DNA from: Candidatus Hadarchaeota archaeon
GTDB lineage: Archaea > Hadarchaeota > Hadarchaeia > Hadarchaeales > Hadarchaeaceae
Reading direction: 5' to 3'
NCBI GenBank assembly: GCA_964514945.1
Contig: CAZESD010000003.1
Location: 1-51,329, forward strand
DNA length: 51,329 nucleotides
In this document: piece by piece, positions 13,878 through 23,726 of the stretch
Numbering within the stretch: position 1 is the stretch's first letter
Layout of the letters: each line of letters begins with the position of its first letter
Made by a program: the position numbers and the translations under genes
Notes under the pieces: model-generated
What the model saw: the letters and a program-made list of their open reading frames with translations, nothing else
Databases searched by the model: none
What the model was told of the DNA's origin: nothing

Positions 13878-15026
13878 ATGTCTGGGGAACTATCGGATAG
13901 GGAAATGGGGAATTTGGCAAGGAATTTTGTAAGGCGCTCGATGAGGATAGGGAAAAAGCGCAACGGCAGGTATGATGCCGTAAGGATAATTTACAACCGC
14001 ATTGACTCAAGCTGTGAAAAATTTGTCCTTAAAGTTGAAGAGGAATGCTGGCGGGTGGGCGCGCACACGCTCTTGCTTGGCTACTCATCCGAGAGAGCGA
14101 AGATAAAATACACTCTGTCCCCCGAAAAATCCCTGCGTGAGATGAGTCCGTTCGCGGAGGCGATAACGAGGCGAGCGGATACGTTGATCTTCATCGGAGA
14201 AGAGGACAAGCCAAACTGGGCGAGGGGCCTCACGGCGAAAGTAAAACTCACGGCACCTGTTCGGGAAAAACTTCACGAGATTACTGATAGGAGGAAGACC
14301 CGGTGGGCATACTTCGGCTGGCCCATCCCAGGGGCAGCTCGAGCTTACGGTTGCGCGGTCAAGAAGTTTAGGAGGATTTTTTTCGACAGCATTCGGAAAA
14401 CTTTTACACCTGAGCTCATCAAACTTTGCAAATTTTATCATGATGCGCTCGCGGGAAAAAATGAAGTTCGAATAACCGCGACAGATGGTACGAATTTGAC
14501 TTTCCGAATAAAAGGCCGCCCAGTGCTGGTCGACGATGGGATAATTTCTAACGAAGACCTTGCGCGCGGTGACGTTGGGGTGAACATCCCAGCAGGTGAG
14601 GTTTTCATTGCACCGCTTGAGACGAGTGCGAATGGAAAGATATTGTTTGAACAGGTTGCGATTCCAGGATTCGGAAAACTTGAAGGGCTAGAGCTCAAGT
14701 TTAGGAGGGGCAAGGTAATGAGTTACGAAGCGGTACGCGGCAGGGAGAACTTCACCAAATTCCTCAAGGCGAACACGGGCGAAAAGGACCGCATCGGGGA
14801 GTTCGGCATAGGCACAAATCCTGGTGCGGCTTACACAGGGGGCAGCATAATCATCGACGAGAAGATTTTTGGCACGGTTCACATCGCCATAGGCAACAAC
14901 CGCGGAGCCTACCACGGCAAAAATCGAGCTTCCAGCCATCTCGACATCATCAAAGACATGCGGCACGGGCAAGTTTTCGTGGACGGCGAGCTTATAATGG
15001 ATCGGGGGAAACCGACCCGACGATAG
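13878..15026 (+). CDS. M29-family (thermophilic metalloprotease) aminopeptidase
   Basis: GTNLTF, NIPAGEVF, IGEFGIGTN, IDEKIFGTVHIAIG, HLDII. Confidence 0.9.
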   Translation: MSGELSDREMGNLARNFVRRSMRIGKKRNGRYDAVRIIYNRIDSSCEKFVLKVEEECWRVGAHTLLLGYSSERAKIKYTLSPEKSLREMSPFAEAITRRADTLIFIGEEDKPNWARGLTAKVKLTAPVREKLHEITDRRKTRWAYFGWPIPGAARAYGCAVKKFRRIFFDSIRKTFTPELIKLCKFYHDALAGKNEVRITATDGTNLTFRIKGRPVLVDDGIISNEDLARGDVGVNIPAGEVFIAPLETSANGKILFEQVAIPGFGKLEGLELKFRRGKVMSYEAVRGRENFTKFLKANTGEKDRIGEFGIGTNPGAAYTGGSIIIDEKIFGTVHIAIGNNRGAYHGKNRASSHLDIIKDMRHGQVFVDGELIMDRGKPTRR

Positions 15027-15114
15027 ATTGCGGCATCTGTTATGCTTTGTTGAGTGTAGAGAGAGGTTGTATCTCTGAAGTGATTTATACACAACTTCGG
15101 CATGTTATTCTTCA

Positions 15115-15507
15115 TCAGTGCCCTTTGCGTCTGACACGCCGAGCCGCTGCGAGTTTTTCCTTTTTCTCCTCAAGCACATGGGGTTTATATTCATCTATGA
15201 CGCTTTGAGGGCACATCTTCACCCCGCTGAAGTATCCAGCTCTGGCGATTGCATGCGAAGCGATCGGGGTCGTCGACAGGAGGAAGATCATGATCAGAAA
15301 GGCCTTTACGGAAGCCGCCGAGATGCCTTCAAGGAGAATCACGCCCAGTATGATCCCACACGCCCCAATTACAATAGATTTGGTGGCTGCGTGGAGCCTC
15401 GTGTACAAATCTGGAAATCTGACAATCCCCAGCGTTCCCAAGAAATAAAATATCGACCCGATCAGTATGAGAACCATAGAAATTATCTCGAGAATCTGTT
15501 CGATCAT
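15115..15507 (-). CDS. mnhG: Mrp/Mnh antiporter subunit G
   Basis: GIVRFPDLYTRLHAATK, TPIASHAIARA. Confidence 0.92.
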   Translation of the reverse strand: MIEQILEIISMVLILIGSIFYFLGTLGIVRFPDLYTRLHAATKSIVIGACGIILGVILLEGISAASVKAFLIMIFLLSTTPIASHAIARAGYFSGVKMCPQSVIDEYKPHVLEEKKEKLAAARRVRRKGH

Positions 15508-15770
15508 ATCCTTATCTCACCTTCAAGGTATTTGGTGATGACTAAAGTACTGATGAATGCGATTAGGGCAAGAGGAATGGCAACGTCAATAAAGAGCTCG
15601 TTGATGTACGAGCCGAGCAAAACAGCTAGCCCAACTCCAACTAAGGTCATGGTGTTCAGAGCCATCGCCCTGTCGGCCAACGATGGGCCCCTTATCAGCC
15701 TATAGAGGCAGAACACAAATGACGCGCACAACAGGCCGATGAATATGTAAATGAAATTCTCAATCATCAT
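15504..15770 (-). CDS. mnhF: Mrp/Mnh antiporter subunit F
   Basis: RLIRGPSLADRAMAL, FISTLVITKYL. Confidence 0.9.
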   Translation of the reverse strand: MMIENFIYIFIGLLCASFVFCLYRLIRGPSLADRAMALNTMTLVGVGLAVLLGSYINELFIDVAIPLALIAFISTLVITKYLEGEIRI

Positions 15771-16270
15771 TCAAACATCTTCCTCAGATGTGGTTCGTAC
15801 GCGCCAGAGATCTCCTTTTTCACGGCTTCTAACTCCCTTTTCGTGACATGAATCCAGTGCACGTATAATTCGTTCCTTTTTTGATCGAAATCCACGAGCA
15901 GGGTGCCAGGTGTTAGGGTTATTGAATTGGATAGCAGCGTGATTTCCCAGTCTTTCCTGAGGTGCGTTGGCACGCGTACTATGCCGGGTCTTATCGGCAT
16001 CTTCGGGTGCACCACCTTCCACGCGATATCTAAACTAGCTAAGACAGACTCCTTTATAAAAATAGGGATGTAAAGCACGAGGTACGCCCATCTCCTTGGG
16101 TTAAGGAAGTCTTTACCGCTACCCTTGATAAATACGGTGCTGAAGAGGCACGCCCCCACGGCTGACACAACGAGTCCGGAGACTATCAGTTGTATGTCCA
16201 GTGTGAAAGTGAGTAGCATCCATACTACAAACATGAACAACCAAGCGGCCATGAATTTAATTAACCTCAA
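15767..16270 (-). CDS. mnhE: Mrp/Mnh antiporter subunit E
   Basis: PGIVRVP, LLSNSITLTPGTL, LYVHWI. Confidence 0.93.
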   Translation of the reverse strand: MRLIKFMAAWLFMFVVWMLLTFTLDIQLIVSGLVVSAVGACLFSTVFIKGSGKDFLNPRRWAYLVLYIPIFIKESVLASLDIAWKVVHPKMPIRPGIVRVPTHLRKDWEITLLSNSITLTPGTLLVDFDQKRNELYVHWIHVTKRELEAVKKEISGAYEPHLRKMFE

Positions 16271-16280
16271 GCATCACACC

Positions 16281-17759
16281 TCACAATACCACTCCGATAT
16301 ATATTCCGCTACCCAATACCTGTTTTGATATCTCGCCAACAGCGTCGAGCCCGATATTGGGCAGGATGCCGATCACCAAGCAAGCGGCTGCAAGAATCAG
16401 CACGGGGACTAGCATTGAAGCAGGGGTTGCTCCTCCTCGTGTGTGGCCATCGCTCTTACCTAGAAATATCACCTGAAAAGCTCGGATGTAAACGGCCAAG
16501 ATCAGCAGGCTAACGGCTATCGAGATCGCGAGTGGCATGAAGTGTCCCGCATCAAAACACGCTCGATAAATCAACAACTTACTGATGAAGCCGTTAAATG
16601 GCGGAATTCCAGCAATCGCCAGCCCTCCGAATAAGAACATGGTAGCTTCTACAGGCATGTGCTTTAACAGACCGCCCATCTTGCCTATCTCTCTGGTGCC
16701 AACCCTGTAGATCACGCAACCTATCGTTAAGAACAGCAAAGCCGTCGCAAGCGCATGGTTTACGATGTGAAATATCGCGCCCTCGATTCCTCCAGCGGTA
16801 CCAATGCCTAGGCTCAAAGTTATGTATCCGACACCACATATCGTGGAATACGCGAGAAGTCTCTTTATATCGGTTTGCACGAGCGCGAACGCCGCACCGA
16901 TTATCATCGTGACAATCCCGAGCGCCATAATCGCCGGGCCGATACCTATCGCTTGAAAACCAAACATTGTGTAAGTTATCCTAATTATACCATACAATCC
17001 AACATTAACCGATACGCCGGAAAGTAGTGCGCTTATTGGAGAGGGTGCAGCGAGGTGGGCATCAGGCAGCCAAGCATGCAAAGGTACGATTGCAGCTACC
17101 AGCCCAAGTCCGATGATGAGCGAGATCCCGGCAAAAGTTAGGATTTTCATATTCCCAATTGTTTTAATCATCTCCGCTATGTGCGCCATGTTGAGGGTCC
17201 CAGCAATATTGTAAATTAAGCCGATCCCCAACAGAAATACAAAACCTGCAATCATGCTTAGTACCATATATTTGAAAGACGCTTCCATCTCCACTGGGCC
17301 ACCACGGAATGCCACGAGTGCATAGGCTGCAATGAACGAGATCTCGAGGAACACAAACATGTTAAACAAGTCCCCAGTCAGCACAATACCGTTCATTCCG
17401 GCTATCATGAACATCAAGAGCGAGTCATACATGGGCCGGCCGGTGAATTTTTTCATGTAGGAAGTTGAGTAAACAACACAGAGGAACCCGATACCGGAAA
17501 TTATCAACGTCATAAGGGCGCTTAGAGAATCTGCAACGAGGTTTATACCTAGCGGGGGACTCCAGCCCCCGACCCCATAAGTGAGTATGTTGCCCTCCAA
17601 AGTGGTTTTGAGTATCGTCACCGCTAGGGCTATTAAAATGAGAGTCGTGATAGTGGAAATGGCGTGTCTTGCTTTATTTGAAAACCTACCAATGGTGGTG
17701 TTCAGAAGCCCTGCAAACAGTGGCATTACAATCATGAGTATGAGCGCAAGTTCGATCAT
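16281..17759 (-). CDS. mnhD: Mrp/Mnh antiporter subunit D-like, with atypical loss of lysines
   Basis: GGWSPPLGINLVADSLS, GDLFNMFVFLE, WLPDAH, DIKRLLAYST, PPFNGFISK. Confidence 0.9.
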   Translation of the reverse strand: MIELALILMIVMPLFAGLLNTTIGRFSNKARHAISTITTLILIALAVTILKTTLEGNILTYGVGGWSPPLGINLVADSLSALMTLIISGIGFLCVVYSTSYMKKFTGRPMYDSLLMFMIAGMNGIVLTGDLFNMFVFLEISFIAAYALVAFRGGPVEMEASFKYMVLSMIAGFVFLLGIGLIYNIAGTLNMAHIAEMIKTIGNMKILTFAGISLIIGLGLVAAIVPLHAWLPDAHLAAPSPISALLSGVSVNVGLYGIIRITYTMFGFQAIGIGPAIMALGIVTMIIGAAFALVQTDIKRLLAYSTICGVGYITLSLGIGTAGGIEGAIFHIVNHALATALLFLTIGCVIYRVGTREIGKMGGLLKHMPVEATMFLFGGLAIAGIPPFNGFISKLLIYRACFDAGHFMPLAISIAVSLLILAVYIRAFQVIFLGKSDGHTRGGATPASMLVPVLILAAACLVIGILPNIGLDAVGEISKQVLGSGIYIGVVL

Positions 17760-18100
17760 CCACGGAGCCTCCTTATCTTTTTGACATCTGTACTGCGGTA
17801 TCGTTCGAACAGCCTAATCGCGACCGATACCATGAGTGCGACTGCAGCGAACTCTATCACAATCGCAGTTATGACCATGGCTTGAAGCAAAGGGTCGACC
17901 GGAACCGCGGTTGAGCTACCAGAAATTATAGGAACAGTTCCACCCAAAACATAGCCCAATGAAATTAGCAGCAGGTTGATGGAATATCCCATGAGGCATA
18001 TGCCGTAGATTATCTTGAAGAGGTCCCTTTTAACTAGAATACAGTACAGCCCCACGGAAAACAGCGTCAATGCCGCCAGATACGGGAAATTCATAATCAC
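17756..18100 (-). CDS. mnhC: Mrp/Mnh antiporter subunit C
   Basis: DPLLQAMVITAIVI motif. Confidence 0.92.
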   Translation of the reverse strand: MIMNFPYLAALTLFSVGLYCILVKRDLFKIIYGICLMGYSINLLLISLGYVLGGTVPIISGSSTAVPVDPLLQAMVITAIVIEFAAVALMVSVAIRLFERYRSTDVKKIRRLRG

Positions 18101-18522
18101 CTTCTCTCCTCCTTAGGGCGCCTACCGAATAGGTAGTAAAATATCAGTATTGTTTCGCAACCAACCAGGATGCCTACGCTTATGGCGAGCAGGATGATCA
18201 CACCGGACATCGTGAGATGACCGACGACTTTTGGCAGGAAGTTTTCTAAGAACCCCTTTCCAAGCAGCAGCGCGATTGTCCCCATTGTTAAGAATCCAAG
18301 TAAGCCTAAAATTCTGCCCGTATGTGCAGTAAAACAACTAACCCTTCTTTCCGCAGTTGAGAGCTTGAAGGCTGCATACCAGAGCACAATTAACAGGCCT
18401 ATCACAACCCCGCCTGCAAAGGCCCCACCCGGCGATGTGTGACCGGTTAGGATGAGGTAAATTGCATACACAAATACAAAGGGAGTAATTCCACGTGATA
18501 TGGTTTGAATTATCAAAGACAT
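18097..18522 (-). CDS. mnhB: Mrp/Mnh antiporter subunit B
   Basis: GHTSPGGAFAGG motif. Confidence 0.88.
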   Translation of the reverse strand: MSLIIQTISRGITPFVFVYAIYLILTGHTSPGGAFAGGVVIGLLIVLWYAAFKLSTAERRVSCFTAHTGRILGLLGFLTMGTIALLLGKGFLENFLPKVVGHLTMSGVIILLAISVGILVGCETILIFYYLFGRRPKEERR

Positions 18523-19070
18523 GCCTTGCCCTCCGCCATCTTTTTTGACACCTTCCGCAAAACCAGAGACATGCCTAAAACTGACGCAAAAAGCACCACG
18601 ACTTCCCCTAACGTGTCATAGGCCCGATAATCCAGCAGGATCGCTGTTACAAGGTTTTGGGAACCAGTGTTTTCCACTCCTTCGTCAATGTAGCGTTGGG
18701 AGACCTCGGGGTTATACTCCGGTGACCCAAATTCAGTCATAAGGGGCACAACGGCAACTGAGAATAACAGGAAAACACAGACCACGATTACACCCAGAGC
18801 AAGCGTGGTTTTAGTCGATTCGGGTTCAGAACTCCTTCGGTGCGTTCGGGCCAGCGCTATCACCAGCACGACAACCATCATTATTTCCACGATGAGCTGC
18901 ACTATGGCCAAGTCGGGCGCCATCATGAGAAAGAATAAGATCCCCACGAGGAATCCACAAGCTCCGAGTGCCAAGGCGGCCGCAAGAAGATCCCTCAGCT
19001 CAGCTACCGCAACTGCAGACACGATCACAAGTATAAAGAAAAACCCCATCAGGATTTCCATCACAACCAC
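18513..19070 (-). CDS. DUF4040/MbhD + MbhE-like subunit (detached C-terminal part of MrpA)
   Basis: APDLAIVQLIVE; NLVTAILLDYRAYDTLGEVVVL. Confidence 0.88.
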   Translation of the reverse strand: MVVMEILMGFFFILVIVSAVAVAELRDLLAAALALGACGFLVGILFFLMMAPDLAIVQLIVEIMMVVVLVIALARTHRRSSEPESTKTTLALGVIVVCVFLLFSVAVVPLMTEFGSPEYNPEVSQRYIDEGVENTGSQNLVTAILLDYRAYDTLGEVVVLFASVLGMSLVLRKVSKKMAEGKACL

Positions 19071-20855
19071 CTAAAGCAGGACCGCGTATAGGAGCAGCAA
19101 CATGAAAAATATTGCAATGAGCCACGCTATGTAATCCCTCAGGTGCCCTGACATTACCCTTTTACCTCCCCTGAAACCCGAAACTACGGCGCCTGCGAAT
19201 TTTAAATAGACAGCATCGATCCACCATTCCTTCTTGACGCAATGATGCAGAGCCGAAAGCGGAGCGAAACGGTGCACAGCGCCCATGATGCTCCGTCTTT
19301 TGAGCCATATTACGATAGCAAGCACAATACCCGCATAGCTGAGCAGCGTCAGGAAGGAGGGATCAAAAATAGAAGGCGCATACACCGGAGCGGTTCCTAG
19401 ATTAAATCCTCCCAAAGCCGGCAAGACGATTTGTTCAAGAGGCCAGTAAGCAAACAATCCAAATGCTATACAGCACGCGGCCAACGCGATCATGGGCGCT
19501 TTCATTAATATTGGAACTTTTTTCCGACTTTTGATTACCTTCGGTGTTTTTTGCCTCCAGAAAACCAAGTACAACAACTTGGTAAACAACAGAAGCGTCA
19601 TGATGCTAACAATGATGACTACCAGCGACAGTATAGGATATCCTGCATCAAAGACGGATTTCGTGATCATCCCCTTGCTGAAGAAACCGTTGAAGGGAGG
19701 TATGCCGGAAATGGACACTGCAGCTATTAATCCGCAAACAAAAGTCACTGGCATGTACTTTCTCAAGCCCCCAAGTTTGGCCATGTTCCTTGTTCCAACC
19801 TGGTAAATCACCGCTCCAGCCATCAAGAATAGAAGTGCTTTGAAAAATGCGTGGTTTATCAGATGAAATAGGGCGCCCGCTAGCCCCAAAGAAGTGCCGG
19901 CACCAATACCCATAGTGATGAGGCCTAACTGAGACACCGTGGAAAATCCTACGAGTCTCTTGATGTCAACTTGCACCAGTGCGCATGTGACGCCAACGAG
20001 GGCCGTTATTGCCCCCAGAGTTATGATTGTCGATTGCCAAGCGTAAGGAAACCCAAAGATGCCATAAAAAAACCTTATCAGACCGTAAATCCCGGTTCCC
20101 ACCATGATGCCAGAGAGAAGCGCGCTTATCGAGGAGGGGGCCTCCGGATGAGCATCAGGCAACCAAGTATGAAGTGGTACAACAGCTGATTTGACGCCGA
20201 ACCCGACAAACGTGAGCACCATGGCAGCGGTCAGCCATCCACTATTTGCCGTGGCCAAGAGTCCTCCCAAGGCCGGCATGCTGAGCTCGCCGACGTTGAG
20301 ATAAATGGCGATCATGGCGGTGAGCAGGCACAGGGCGCCCAAGTGTATCATTATAAAGTATTTGTAGGCGGCCCTGATGGCAACGCCCGTTTGAAAGTGC
20401 AGGACAAGCAGGAAGCAGGAGATTGTCATGAGTTCCCAAAAAATGAAGAACTGAAGTAGGTTCCCTGATAGGAAAACACCAACCATGCTACCCGAGAAAA
20501 TCAAAAGGCCAGAGTAGTACCTCGTTAACCCCTCTTTTCCCGCCATATATCTCACAGAGTAAATCGTAGCCAACAGGCAGAGAAAGAGCGCCAAGAGTGA
20601 CATGTACACGGCCAGCGCATCCGCGTAGATCTCAAACTCCAGCCCCAAGCGCTCGGCCCACACATAGGTCAGATGCAGGCGCCCCCCCTCTAGGATAGTG
20701 GGAAGCAGCGAGAGGATGGCTAACATTGCAACGGAGATAATGAGAACGCTGAGGTAGGCCCTAAATTTCGGGCGGCCGCGACCTACAATTGGTATCAAAA
20801 ATGAGGACAAAATCGGGAGCAAGATCGCAATTAAAGGAGCGTATTGCAAACTCAT
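19071..20855 (-). CDS. mnhA: NuoL/MrpA-like proton-translocating subunit
   Basis: FFIFWELM, GFGVKSA, WLPDAHPEAP, NHAFFKALLF, FFSK, lateral-helix tail WWIDAVY...SGHLRDY; start ATG 20855 after AGGTGA RBS. Confidence 0.88.
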   Translation of the reverse strand: MSLQYAPLIAILLPILSSFLIPIVGRGRPKFRAYLSVLIISVAMLAILSLLPTILEGGRLHLTYVWAERLGLEFEIYADALAVYMSLLALFLCLLATIYSVRYMAGKEGLTRYYSGLLIFSGSMVGVFLSGNLLQFFIFWELMTISCFLLVLHFQTGVAIRAAYKYFIMIHLGALCLLTAMIAIYLNVGELSMPALGGLLATANSGWLTAAMVLTFVGFGVKSAVVPLHTWLPDAHPEAPSSISALLSGIMVGTGIYGLIRFFYGIFGFPYAWQSTIITLGAITALVGVTCALVQVDIKRLVGFSTVSQLGLITMGIGAGTSLGLAGALFHLINHAFFKALLFLMAGAVIYQVGTRNMAKLGGLRKYMPVTFVCGLIAAVSISGIPPFNGFFSKGMITKSVFDAGYPILSLVVIIVSIMTLLLFTKLLYLVFWRQKTPKVIKSRKKVPILMKAPMIALAACCIAFGLFAYWPLEQIVLPALGGFNLGTAPVYAPSIFDPSFLTLLSYAGIVLAIVIWLKRRSIMGAVHRFAPLSALHHCVKKEWWIDAVYLKFAGAVVSGFRGGKRVMSGHLRDYIAWLIAIFFMLLLLYAVLL

Positions 20856-21029
20856 GATTTTCAATCTCACCTATTTGTTCTGACAAATTCACGATGTTCG
20901 TGCATAAGAAATAGCTTACGTCGAGCAATCTGTTTAAGGTAATGGTTGGTCTCGATATTGGGATACTTACCGACCTCTGGAACTTGAAGGGAATACCTCC
21001 AAAAAAGTTGCGCAAGCTAAGGCCGGCTT

Positions 21030-21982: not shown

Positions 21983-22690
21983 TTAGATTACATTAAAAAC
22001 TTCGTACTTCAATTTCTCGTTGCCGCACAAATATGTCACATTCTTCAAGTGTTTTCTTGCTTCTCTTACAGCATTTTTGATTTCTTGGGAGGTTGGTGCT
22101 CGCCATAAATCGTTGACTGGAATGTAAGCATCGATATGGTACGATATCTCTGAATCAATTGATGAGATAAATTGCGCGATTTTCTTGATTTCTTCTAGTT
22201 CAATTAAACCAGGGATGTAAATACTCTCGGAGGACAAAGGAACGCCGGAATTATGGATTTTCCTAAAATTCTTTAATGCGTTTTTATTAGATTTTTCAGT
22301 GAATTTTTTGTGTAGTTCATCAGAATACGCTTTTATGCTTACGCAGATATCATTCACATTTTCTAGCAACTTTTCGTTTAGCTCATGACCATTTGTTAGT
22401 AGAATACTGTAGATACCGGAATCGTGCAATTTTTTGGTTAATATTGGTAGTTCTGGGTCAACGGTTGGTTCTCCACCCATTAGGGTTACTTTCTTGGCGC
22501 CGAGGCCATCCAAAATTCTCAAAATCTCGGCCAATCTCAGGTAACGAATTTCACTTTTGGGTTCAGTTTTTACATGGACATCATATAAGGTCTTTTTTCT
22601 AATGCAACCCAAGCAACTGAAATTGCAGCCATAGAAGTGGAGGTTTGCAGTTTTTGTTTTTGGAGCGTATGTTATGTGATACACGTTCAT
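21983..22690 (-). CDS. Radical SAM protein (PflA/activating-enzyme-like, short)
   Basis: FYGCNFSCLGC, MGGEP, LTNG, ISIKA, YIPG. Confidence 0.9.
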   Translation of the reverse strand: MNVYHITYAPKTKTANLHFYGCNFSCLGCIRKKTLYDVHVKTEPKSEIRYLRLAEILRILDGLGAKKVTLMGGEPTVDPELPILTKKLHDSGIYSILLTNGHELNEKLLENVNDICVSIKAYSDELHKKFTEKSNKNALKNFRKIHNSGVPLSSESIYIPGLIELEEIKKIAQFISSIDSEISYHIDAYIPVNDLWRAPTSQEIKNAVREARKHLKNVTYLCGNEKLKYEVFNVI

Positions 22691-22699
22691 TTTACCACT

Positions 22700-23689
22700 C
22701 TAAACTGGACAAGCCCCGCATTTTCGACAGTACGTGGATGTGTGGGGCACGTTTGAATTACACCTAGGGCAAATTTTGCCGTTTGGGTCAGTCGGGTGGG
22801 GCACCCCTACCGCCGACCTGTAAATTTCGTAGTAAAAAAGCTGCTCCTTATCTCTGATGGTCACTTTATCTTCATCGAGGTACTTGCTTTTTTTCTCGTC
22901 AAACCCAATGTCAGGGATAATTAAATTAAAAAAGCTCGGCAGCGTGGCGGTCCCCGAACCAAACTCTATGGGCGTTTTGGTCCTCCATACTATTTCTTTG
23001 GGCAACATATTCTCGAAGGCTTTGCGTAAGATCCACTTGCCCCATGTTTGTCCACTTTCGCTTCGAACTTTTAACGATGGGCCCAACTCCATAGCAAATT
23101 TTTTAAACTTAGGGTCAAGGTATGGAAGCTTGACCTCCATCCCTAGAACTTTAGCAAGCTCTGTTGATGAAAAATGCATGATGCTCCACAATTTTTGGAG
23201 CTCTAAATTTAGCTGCTTCTTTTCCAATCCGTGGAGAAAGCTGTATCCTGCGAAGAGCTCGTCACACCCATCGCCAGTTATAACCGTATTTGCACAGTTT
23301 TCCTTCGCATACTTTAGACCAATATAAATCGTTGCGCTGTTGCGGATTTCCATGGGGTCGAAAGAGTCCAAGGCCTTGACAACAACTCGAATTGCATCGT
23401 ACAACTCTTCCTCGTTGAAGCGGTGAACAAAATGTTTTAAGCCAAAACGGTTTGCTACCAAAGCCGCGTAGGAGATATCTGGCGCGGGAGCGTTCTGTAG
23501 AGCAACCGTAAATGCCGTTAGTCCTACTCGCTTGGATGCCAAGTAGGCAAGAATCGATGTGTCAAGGCCCCCAGAAAGCAGAATCCCCTCCGCCAGATTT
23601 CTTTCGACGCTTTCATCCAGCGCTTTCATAAGTCTGTTGCATAGGGCAACAAGATCTTCTGCATCCGATTGTTTTTGGGGATTTATCAT
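22700..23689 (-). CDS. Stand-alone asparagine-synthetase C-terminal (synthetase) domain with Zn ribbon
   Basis: LLSGGLDTS PP-loop, TGDGCDELFAGY, LPYLD, KWILRKAF, RTKTPIEFGSG, C-terminal CPRC...CRKC; no glutaminase domain. Confidence 0.88.
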   Translation of the reverse strand: MINPQKQSDAEDLVALCNRLMKALDESVERNLAEGILLSGGLDTSILAYLASKRVGLTAFTVALQNAPAPDISYAALVANRFGLKHFVHRFNEEELYDAIRVVVKALDSFDPMEIRNSATIYIGLKYAKENCANTVITGDGCDELFAGYSFLHGLEKKQLNLELQKLWSIMHFSSTELAKVLGMEVKLPYLDPKFKKFAMELGPSLKVRSESGQTWGKWILRKAFENMLPKEIVWRTKTPIEFGSGTATLPSFFNLIIPDIGFDEKKSKYLDEDKVTIRDKEQLFYYEIYRSAVGVPHPTDPNGKICPRCNSNVPHTSTYCRKCGACPV

Positions 23690-23726
23690 CTCTATCCATT
23701 AATAATTAACACGTAAAGGTTTTATA

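Follow-up and report, generated by a model that had tools for sequence, protein, structure and literature searches.

A Hadarchaeota Mrp operon whose MrpD lacks three central-axis lysines and looks to be kept by selection

The sequence analysed here, hereafter the window, is a stretch of 51,329 nucleotides (nt) from a Candidatus Hadarchaeota archaeon (assembly GCA_964514945.1, contig CAZESD010000003.1, positions 1 to 51,329), whose genome assembly (G000; 1.07 Mb) is 75% complete. It carries an eight-gene mrp operon, encoded entirely on the minus strand from position 20870 to 15115 in the order A(N), A(C), B, C, D, E, F, G (Table 1), whose MrpD subunit is without three of the four lysines held to carry protons. 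Neighbouring genes mostly overlap by 4-10 nt, the two parts of mrpA abut without a gap, and mrpD and mrpE are spaced by 10 nt. All eight products exceed the curated cut-offs of their respective Pfam families. No hydrogenase or complex I peripheral-arm genes (NuoH-, NuoB-, NuoC-, NuoD/large-subunit-like) lie within 6 kb on either side, and the sole hydrogenase-type module found in the 75%-complete genome, on contig C12, has Mrp-like subunits of its own. Gene calls, Pfam matches and inspection of the flanks thus agree with the original prediction made for this locus, which had described the operon as intact, coupled, complete (A, A-tail, B-G) and free of hydrogenase genes. By homology and architecture, we assign it to the Mrp/CPA3 family (Transporter Classification 2.A.63), with the same subunit set and order as the Group-1 Mrp complexes of Bacillus pseudofirmus (7qru) and Anoxybacillus flavithermus (6z16), apart from the division of A into two genes in the window.

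Table 1. Features of the mrp operon in the window, followed by the diagnostic positions of MrpD and their B. pseudofirmus counterparts (aa, amino acids; TM, transmembrane helix; PDB, Protein Data Bank).
Feature	Position in window	Strand	Pfam families and evidence	B. pseudofirmus residue	State
Variable chromosomal slot enclosing the whole operon	15013..21028	.	synteny by blastn and tblastn		
mrpA N-terminal part, NuoL-like, 599 aa	19071..20870	(-)	PF00361, PF00662; alignments to 7qru_A, 6z16_A		
mrpA C-terminal part, separate gene, MbhD and MbhE domains, 185 aa	18513..19070	(-)	PF13244, PF20501; PDB and ortholog alignments		
mrpB, 141 aa	18097..18522	(-)	PF04039; PDB alignments		
mrpC, NuoK-like, 114 aa	17756..18100	(-)	PF00420; PDB alignments		
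mrpD, 492 aa	16281..17759	(-)	PF00361; PDB alignments, AlphaFold2 model		
mrpE, 167 aa	15767..16270	(-)	PF01899; alignment		
mrpF, 88 aa	15504..15770	(-)	PF04066; PDB and clade alignments		
mrpG, 130 aa	15115..15507	(-)	PF03334; alignment		
MrpD TM5, Glu139	17343-17345			Glu137	kept
MrpD TM7, Val221 (codon GTA)	17097-17099			Lys219	replaced
MrpD TM8, Asn252 (codon AAT)	17004-17006			Lys250	replaced
MrpD His335				His333	kept
MrpD TM11, Thr339 (codon ACG)	16743-16745			Lys337	replaced
MrpD Phe343				Phe341	kept
MrpD TM12, Lys394	16578-16580			Lys392	kept

MrpD was aligned with HMMER to four subunits of known structure, A. flavithermus MrpD (6z16_D), B. pseudofirmus MrpD (7qru_D), Pyrococcus furiosus MbhH (6cfw_H) and MbsH (6u8y_H), at E-values of 1e-70 to 1e-80, and the alignments run gap-free through transmembrane helices (TM) 5, 7, 8, 11 and 12. 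This comparison with Bacillus, Anoxybacillus and Pyrococcus proteins, which had been proposed as a check, places the three lysine sites unambiguously; the alignments to Mrp, MBH and MBS structures agree that the changes to Val, Asn and Thr at TM7, TM8 and TM11 (V/N/T in what follows) are real and independent, with the codons as originally read, and that the TM5 glutamate and the TM12 lysine of MrpD are retained. Relatives that have lost only the TM7 lysine (V/K/K) carry AAG or AAA codons at the TM8 and TM11 sites. An AlphaFold2 model of MrpD, built from a 126-sequence alignment, reaches a predicted local distance difference test score (pLDDT) of 96.9 and superposes in Foldseek on 7qru_D and 6z16_D with a TM-score of 0.94 and a root-mean-square deviation of 2.0-2.1 Å. 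In it, TM7 and TM12 are broken at residues 222-229 and 384-388, and Val221 sits at the end of TM7a, immediately ahead of the break. Given the confidence of the model and its superposition on known structures, MrpD is predicted to retain the 14-TM antiporter-like fold, and the residue alignment is not in doubt.

Of the 85 family positions with a conservation of 80% or more, MrpD departs from only four, Tyr112Asp, Lys221Val, Gln309Gly and Lys339Thr, two of which are lysines of the central axis. As for the other two, Asp112 (17424-17426), at the start of TM4, is found throughout the clade described below, and Gly309 (16833-16835), in TM10, is common only to the closest relative, P0003. The presence of a compensating Lys or His nearby had been named as an observation that would speak against a changed mechanism; by sequence comparison of all subunits, no Lys, Arg or His has been gained at a membrane-core position of any of them, and the basic gains of MrpD (Lys205, His32 and Arg399) are surface-side only. 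A partner encoded in trans was considered and provisionally set aside, as a tblastn search of the 75%-complete assembly gave only the self-contained Mbh-type cluster on C12.

In Bacillus-type Mrp, MrpD's Glu (TM5)/Lys (TM7) pair looks onto a hydrated double cavity, shared with MrpC and the C-terminal part of MrpA, MrpA-C, in which cations bind (PMC7419157, PMC9568556). The pair is described as essential, and its conservation as strict or absolute (PMC7419157, PMC9568556, PMC5703873). In line with the essential role claimed for the TM7 lysine at the outset, the Bacillus MrpD-K219A mutant retains the complex and has no antiport left (PMC5703873). Simulations further show that MrpD Glu137 itself can bind Na+, and the mechanisms put forward rely on the charge of the lysines and not on polarity alone (PMC7419157, PMC9568556). 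In the window, the pair is represented by Glu139 and the non-ionisable Val221, and MrpD's Lys-His-Lys triad reads Asn252, His335, Thr339, while the TM12 lysine is present in both large subunits (MrpD Lys394, MrpA Lys399).

MrpA does not make good this loss. It keeps Glu146 (TM5), Lys227 (TM7), His340/Lys344 and Lys399 (TM12), and its TM8 lysine is replaced by Gly258 (20097-20099, motif SALL-SGIMVGTG) in alignments to 7qru_A and 6z16_A; in the structure alignments, it has no counterpart to the mobile His248 found in Bacillus MrpA. The idea of a one-channel antiporter, in which an altered MrpD would be paired with an intact MrpA, must therefore be given up. The same TM8 glycine and the same lack of a His248 equivalent are seen in G003 (a second genome of the genus), L039 and L139-141. 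A sister branch of stand-alone operons shows the reverse of this pattern, with the TM7 lysine of MrpA replaced by Glu (L042 2978-4777) or Gly (L043 3191-4975) and the TM8 lysine kept.

Among the smaller subunits, MrpA-C retains the carboxylates that are essential in A. flavithermus (E706/D792/E796) and B. pseudofirmus (E687/E780), namely Glu62 (= E687/E706a), Asp152 and Glu156 (= D792a/E796a), together with Arg149 and His77, and the TLTPGT motif of MrpE and the conserved TM3 proline of MrpG are likewise retained. MrpF keeps Asp33 and Arg34 and has Asn39 (15654-15656) at the site of an Asp called ‘invariable’, which is D35f in A. flavithermus and D38 in B. pseudofirmus. Changing D35f to Leu kills the activity (PMC7419157), while, as far as the citation of Kajiyama 2009 in PMC7419157 conveys, an Asp-to-Asn change is tolerated in B. 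subtilis. In MrpC, the acidic and cation-ligand positions of TM2 are occupied by Gly38, Tyr39 and Asn42, and a glutamate, Glu83 (17852-17854), appears in TM3, where most relatives have Gly and Bacillus MrpC has Ser80c, a cation ligand in A. flavithermus.

Set beside the Bacillus and Anoxybacillus complexes as a whole, the window operon is thus alike in the fold of MrpD, the TM5 glutamate and TM12 lysine of both large subunits, the Glu/Asp/Glu set of MrpA-C, the TPG motif of MrpE and the proline of MrpG, and differs in the Val/Asn/Thr of MrpD, the TM8 glycine and missing His248 of MrpA, the Asn of MrpF and, in MrpC, in having Tyr and Asn for His37 and His40 and Glu for Ser80. Judged by the residues that the literature regards as diagnostic, it fails at four points (the Glu/Lys pair and the triad of MrpD, the TM8 Lys/His of MrpA and the Asp of MrpF), and on this sequence evidence we would file it as a divergent Mrp variant, not as a typical member. 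MrpG is found fused to a C-terminal PhoU_div domain (PF01865) in related stand-alone operons (L042 8266-9306, L045 4011-5036; ∼345 aa), an arrangement that suggests a cytoplasmic regulatory link.

How unusual such an MrpD is was judged from 117 representatives of the MrpD/MbhH-like type, the top-scoring results of a profile search run against 1.84 billion proteins, with each 50%-identity cluster represented once. The canonical E-K-K-H-K-F-K pattern is found in 73 of them. A residue other than Lys occurs at TM7 in ∼13% (mostly Glu, as in MbsH), at TM8 in ∼20% and at TM11 in ∼4%, and all three lysines are missing only in the lineage of the window and in one unrelated protein of 633 aa (P0216), where the loss is independent and the pattern is E-L-L-H-I-F-R. 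The top profile matches also include proteins of 1250-1330 aa (P0122-P0130) with three antiporter-like stretches. The nearest described precedent for a natural change at TM7 is MbsH of MBS, where Glu219 occupies this position in TMH7 and the TM5 Glu, TM8 Lys, TM11 His and TM12 Lys are kept (PMC7684303). It shows that the TM7 position can vary in working complexes; however, its TM7 residue is ionisable, its TM8 and TM11 lysines are in place and it belongs to a redox-driven complex, whereas the window combines a TM7 valine with the loss of the TM8 and TM11 lysines in a stand-alone operon. Literature searches returned no description of an Mrp clade devoid of the TM7 lysine, nor of a Val/Asn/Thr MrpD, and single lysine departures thus have precedent, while, as far as we found, the joint occurrence of a hydrophobic residue at TM7 and uncharged ones at TM8 and TM11 has none.

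The three losses differ in age. Orthologues from 82% down to 48% identical carry V, M, N, G or I at TM7 of MrpD and keep the TM11 lysine, as well as the TM8 lysine except in P0022 (Asn). In the MrpD tree, these TM7-less proteins form one monophyletic clade (support 98/100), which, among the species representatives whose genome contigs were scanned, is confined to Hadarchaeota; a match labelled Methanobacteriaceae (L056) is canonical K/K/K and falls outside the pattern. The loss at TM7 is accordingly old and clade-wide, and only those at TM8 and TM11 are recent. The clade also shares changes elsewhere in the complex: MrpF carries Asn in all 12 TM7-less loci in which the position is readable and Asp in nearly all other surveyed loci, and, in a survey of ∼90 loci, MrpC reads ‘GYNE’ in most clade members as opposed to the canonical ‘EYNG’. 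Because the MrpF Asp has become Asn and the acidic residue of MrpC has moved from TM2 to TM3, the cation-coupling side appears to be rewired across the whole TM7-less clade.

Within this clade, stand-alone operons are basal, and a derived subclade sits in group 4 [NiFe] hydrogenase clusters, with HycI, NuoB-, NuoH-, 30K- and Fer4-type genes and an adjoining molybdopterin enzyme. This order is the reverse of that expected if the stand-alone operon were the remnant of a hydrogenase, an origin we had considered and discarded. The hydrogenase-linked modules of Hadarchaeota (L041, G028, G031), whose MrpD is sister to the sub-lineage of the window, share with it the TM7 loss (V, N or G), the Asn of MrpF and the ‘GYNE’ of MrpC. 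They differ from it in the gene order At-B-C-D-E-F-G-A-NuoH, accompanied by NuoB, the large subunit, Fer4, HycI and a molybdopterin enzyme, and in keeping the TM8 and TM11 lysines of MrpD and the TM8 lysine of MrpA; in architecture, they resemble the formate hydrogenlyase-Mnh clusters of Thermococcus. The Ni-binding cysteines of the L041 large subunit are intact, and because such relatives are integral to intact [NiFe] hydrogenase clusters, a TM7-less MrpD looks compatible with an energy-converting complex.

The triple replacement is not a private feature of the window. The MrpD of G003 is also V/N/T, and another 13 distinct alleles fall in the 90%-identity cluster, every one of full length, 90-98% identical and with the pattern E-V-N-H-T-K. 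Different samples yielded three further complete operons, located at the identical chromosomal site and with eight open genes each, and none of the genes of the four complete operons contains a stop codon. Pooled across these four, the ratio of non-synonymous to synonymous polymorphism (pN/pS) is 0.21 for mrpD and 0.22 for mrpA; the small subunits lie at 0.13-0.21 and three housekeeping genes in the flanks at 0.15-0.19. Pairwise Nei-Gojobori estimates of the corresponding substitution ratio (dN/dS) within the V/N/T group are 0.16-0.22; at ∼0.2, the ratio at low divergence is slightly higher than the 0.10-0.14 at deeper divergence. The 87 polymorphic sites among the V/N/T alleles of MrpD hit none of the 85 conserved family positions (Mann-Whitney p ∼1e-11). 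As polymorphism avoids conserved positions and departures from them are few, selection seems to treat this MrpD as a member of its family, the lysine axis excepted. Orthologues thus carry the same triple loss at a low ratio, as the original prediction had anticipated for a selected variant, and the simple decay that it had set as the alternative, marked by private substitutions and an elevated dN/dS, is not what we find, since the replacements are shared and the pN/pS of mrpD is like that of mrpA and the flanks. V/N/T MrpD therefore looks, on sequence evidence, like an intact protein that is under selection in many environmental populations and not decaying.

The history of the operon differs from that of its surroundings. 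Between G000 and G003, it is 93.2% identical at the nucleotide level over 4.4 kb (window 16585-20968 against L035, G003:C40), whereas identity is only 72-84% in the flanks and in 14 kb from elsewhere in the window, and ∼80% between the genomes of the two species. In most other pairs too, the synonymous divergence (dS) of the operon is several-fold below that of flanking genes, and against the V/K/K relative L039 it forms a mosaic, with 0.27-0.35 in A, F and G and 0.6-1.2 from A-C through E. Because the operon is so much more alike than its flanks and its dS is mosaic, repeated homologous exchange is indicated, with the allele apparently spreading between diverged genomes, which is not expected of a broken operon.

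The operon is accessory, being present in 2 of the 14 genomes of the genus (G000 and G003), and occupies a variable slot bordered by an M29 peptidase gene and a 126-aa membrane open reading frame. In G002 (94% complete, 3 contigs; L134), only ∼460 bp separate the flanking genes, and in G001 (L138), G005 (L137), G006 (L135) and G008 (L136), the slot is filled by a single gene for a Na+/H+ exchanger (392 aa; PF00999, E 5.6e-50). No orthologue of this exchanger was found in G000, which has a 29%-identical paralogue elsewhere in the genome. That sister genomes fill this position with a single-gene Na+/H+ exchanger is a circumstantial yet pointed argument for a role of the operon in cation/proton exchange. 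Another indel beside the slot is a radical-SAM/DUF71-like gene pair upstream of the operon (window 21983-23700), which is absent from the syntenic regions of G003 (L035) and G002 (L134).

We favour, with a probability of roughly 0.55, the reading that the operon encodes a functional, selectively kept Mrp variant in which MrpD acts as scaffold and as an electrostatic link, with ion exchange centred on a carboxylate cluster. An archaeal Mrp clade would have cut the Glu/Lys pair of MrpD down to the lone TM5 glutamate, changed the Asp of MrpF to Asn and shifted the acidic residue of MrpC to TM3, and the sub-lineage of the window would next have replaced the TM8 and TM11 lysines of MrpD and the TM8 lysine of MrpA. 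The residues with which MrpD faces its neighbours are kept, Glu139 towards MrpC and MrpA-C and Lys394 towards MrpA, and the subunit most likely plays this scaffolding and linking part, no longer that of a lysine-relay proton channel; any passage of protons through it would run via Asn252, His335, Thr339 and water. The putative coupling site is a lysine-free cluster of three glutamates, MrpD Glu139, MrpC Glu83 and MrpA-C Glu62, which could bind Na+ and H+ competitively, with Asp152 and Glu156 of MrpA-C as candidate exit carboxylates. A lower H+/Na+ ratio or a shifted ion preference relative to Bacillus Mrp is predicted, and altered stoichiometry or ion use would be a reasonable thing to infer from these residues.

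Several points weigh against this reading. In Bacillus, MrpD K219A abolishes antiport (PMC5703873) and the D35f-to-Leu change of MrpF abolishes activity (PMC7419157). MrpA is likewise short of a central lysine, which leaves the route by which protons cross in question, and since different lysines are lost in each related lineage, the relay may be unconstrained and the complex may no longer move protons. Moreover, the operon is accessory, purifying selection is a sign that the protein matters and not a proof that it is an antiporter, and the slot argument is circumstantial.

In a first rival reading, the complex would be repurposed, that is, assembled and under selection but no longer exchanging cations for protons, and working as a uniport or channel-like path for Na+ or K+, a sensor or a membrane-organising module while its relay erodes. 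Relay lysines have indeed been lost in a lineage-specific manner in both large subunits (TM8 of MrpA here, TM7 of MrpA in L042 and L043, TM7 of MrpD clade-wide), the MrpF Asp is replaced across the clade, and the MrpG-PhoU_div fusions hint at regulation. We nonetheless consider it unlikely, as the carboxylates of the cation path in MrpA-C and the TM5 glutamate and TM12 lysine of both large subunits are all kept, members of the sister clade are part of genuine energy-converting hydrogenases, and the slot is common to a gene of a bona fide Na+/H+ exchanger family. A second rival, that of an ordinary, Bacillus-like antiporter in which Asn252, Thr339, His335 and bound water form the proton wire and stoichiometry and ion specificity are unchanged, strikes us as quite improbable. 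Asn and Thr, which make up two of the three new residues, are polar, His335 and the Phe343 gate are kept, the absence of the TM8 lysine from about a fifth of the surveyed representatives means that it is not universally required, and the MrpF change to Asn may be as tolerable here as the B. subtilis result cited in PMC7419157 implies. However, Val at TM7 (M, G or I in relatives) leaves Glu139 without an ionisable partner, the corresponding K219A mutant is inactive (PMC5703873), the TM11 lysine shows 97% conservation across the family, and the mechanisms put forward need lysine charge beyond mere polarity (PMC7419157, PMC9568556).

Early-stage decay, with the lysine losses as the first visible lesions of an operon that is losing its function, is very improbable and largely refuted. 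It would fit the accessory status of the operon, the slight rise of the ratio to ∼0.2 at low divergence and one allele (P0004, L040 ∼848-851) in which an in-frame deletion of 38 aa removes TM4b-TM5, including the Glu. Yet all eight genes are intact in the four complete operons, pN/pS is on a par with flanking housekeeping genes, polymorphism spares every conserved position, and the operon is more alike between species than the remaining genome. The P0004 deletion itself was set aside as evidence, as its junction, which has no clear repeat, lies just where identity to the window shifts from 94% to 88%, which makes a chimeric contig likely, and all 13 other alleles of the cluster are full length.

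A bolder version of the preferred reading would have the whole complex dispense with the lysine relay: a non-conducting MrpD scaffold, an MrpA without its central lysine and exchange carried out by the three-glutamate site at the MrpD/MrpC/MrpA-C interface, electroneutral or at low stoichiometry, as might suit low-energy life. We regard this as tentative and, taken as a whole, rather unlikely. Were this so, Mrp-type ion exchange could do without the lysine axis of antiporter-like subunits, and the order of losses, from TM7 of MrpD through TM8 of MrpA to TM8 and TM11 of MrpD, would trace an evolutionary path of its dismantling.

Long-distance charge coupling in antiporter-like subunits is still a core puzzle in the study of Mrp, MBH/MBS and complex I, and existing models give a key role to the lysines of TM7, TM8 and TM12. 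The Hadarchaeota operons offer a graded series kept by selection, from K/K/K through V/K/K, both stand-alone and hydrogenase-linked, to V/N/T, where the TM8 lysine of MrpA is missing as well. At its end, the V/N/T operon looks like a working natural exception to the rule drawn from Bacillus mutants and not like a decaying gene, and such ‘essential residue’ rules are not safely transferred to the annotation of archaeal Mrp. The same genome also holds a departure of another kind in the Mbh-type [NiFe] cluster on C12, whose MbhH-like subunit (G000:C12:14083-15558; L029/L034) has the pattern E-K-T-N-K-F-K, with Thr in place of the TM8 lysine and Asn in place of the TM11 histidine; it has orthologues in most members of the genus, and the pattern is kept in >20 related sequences.

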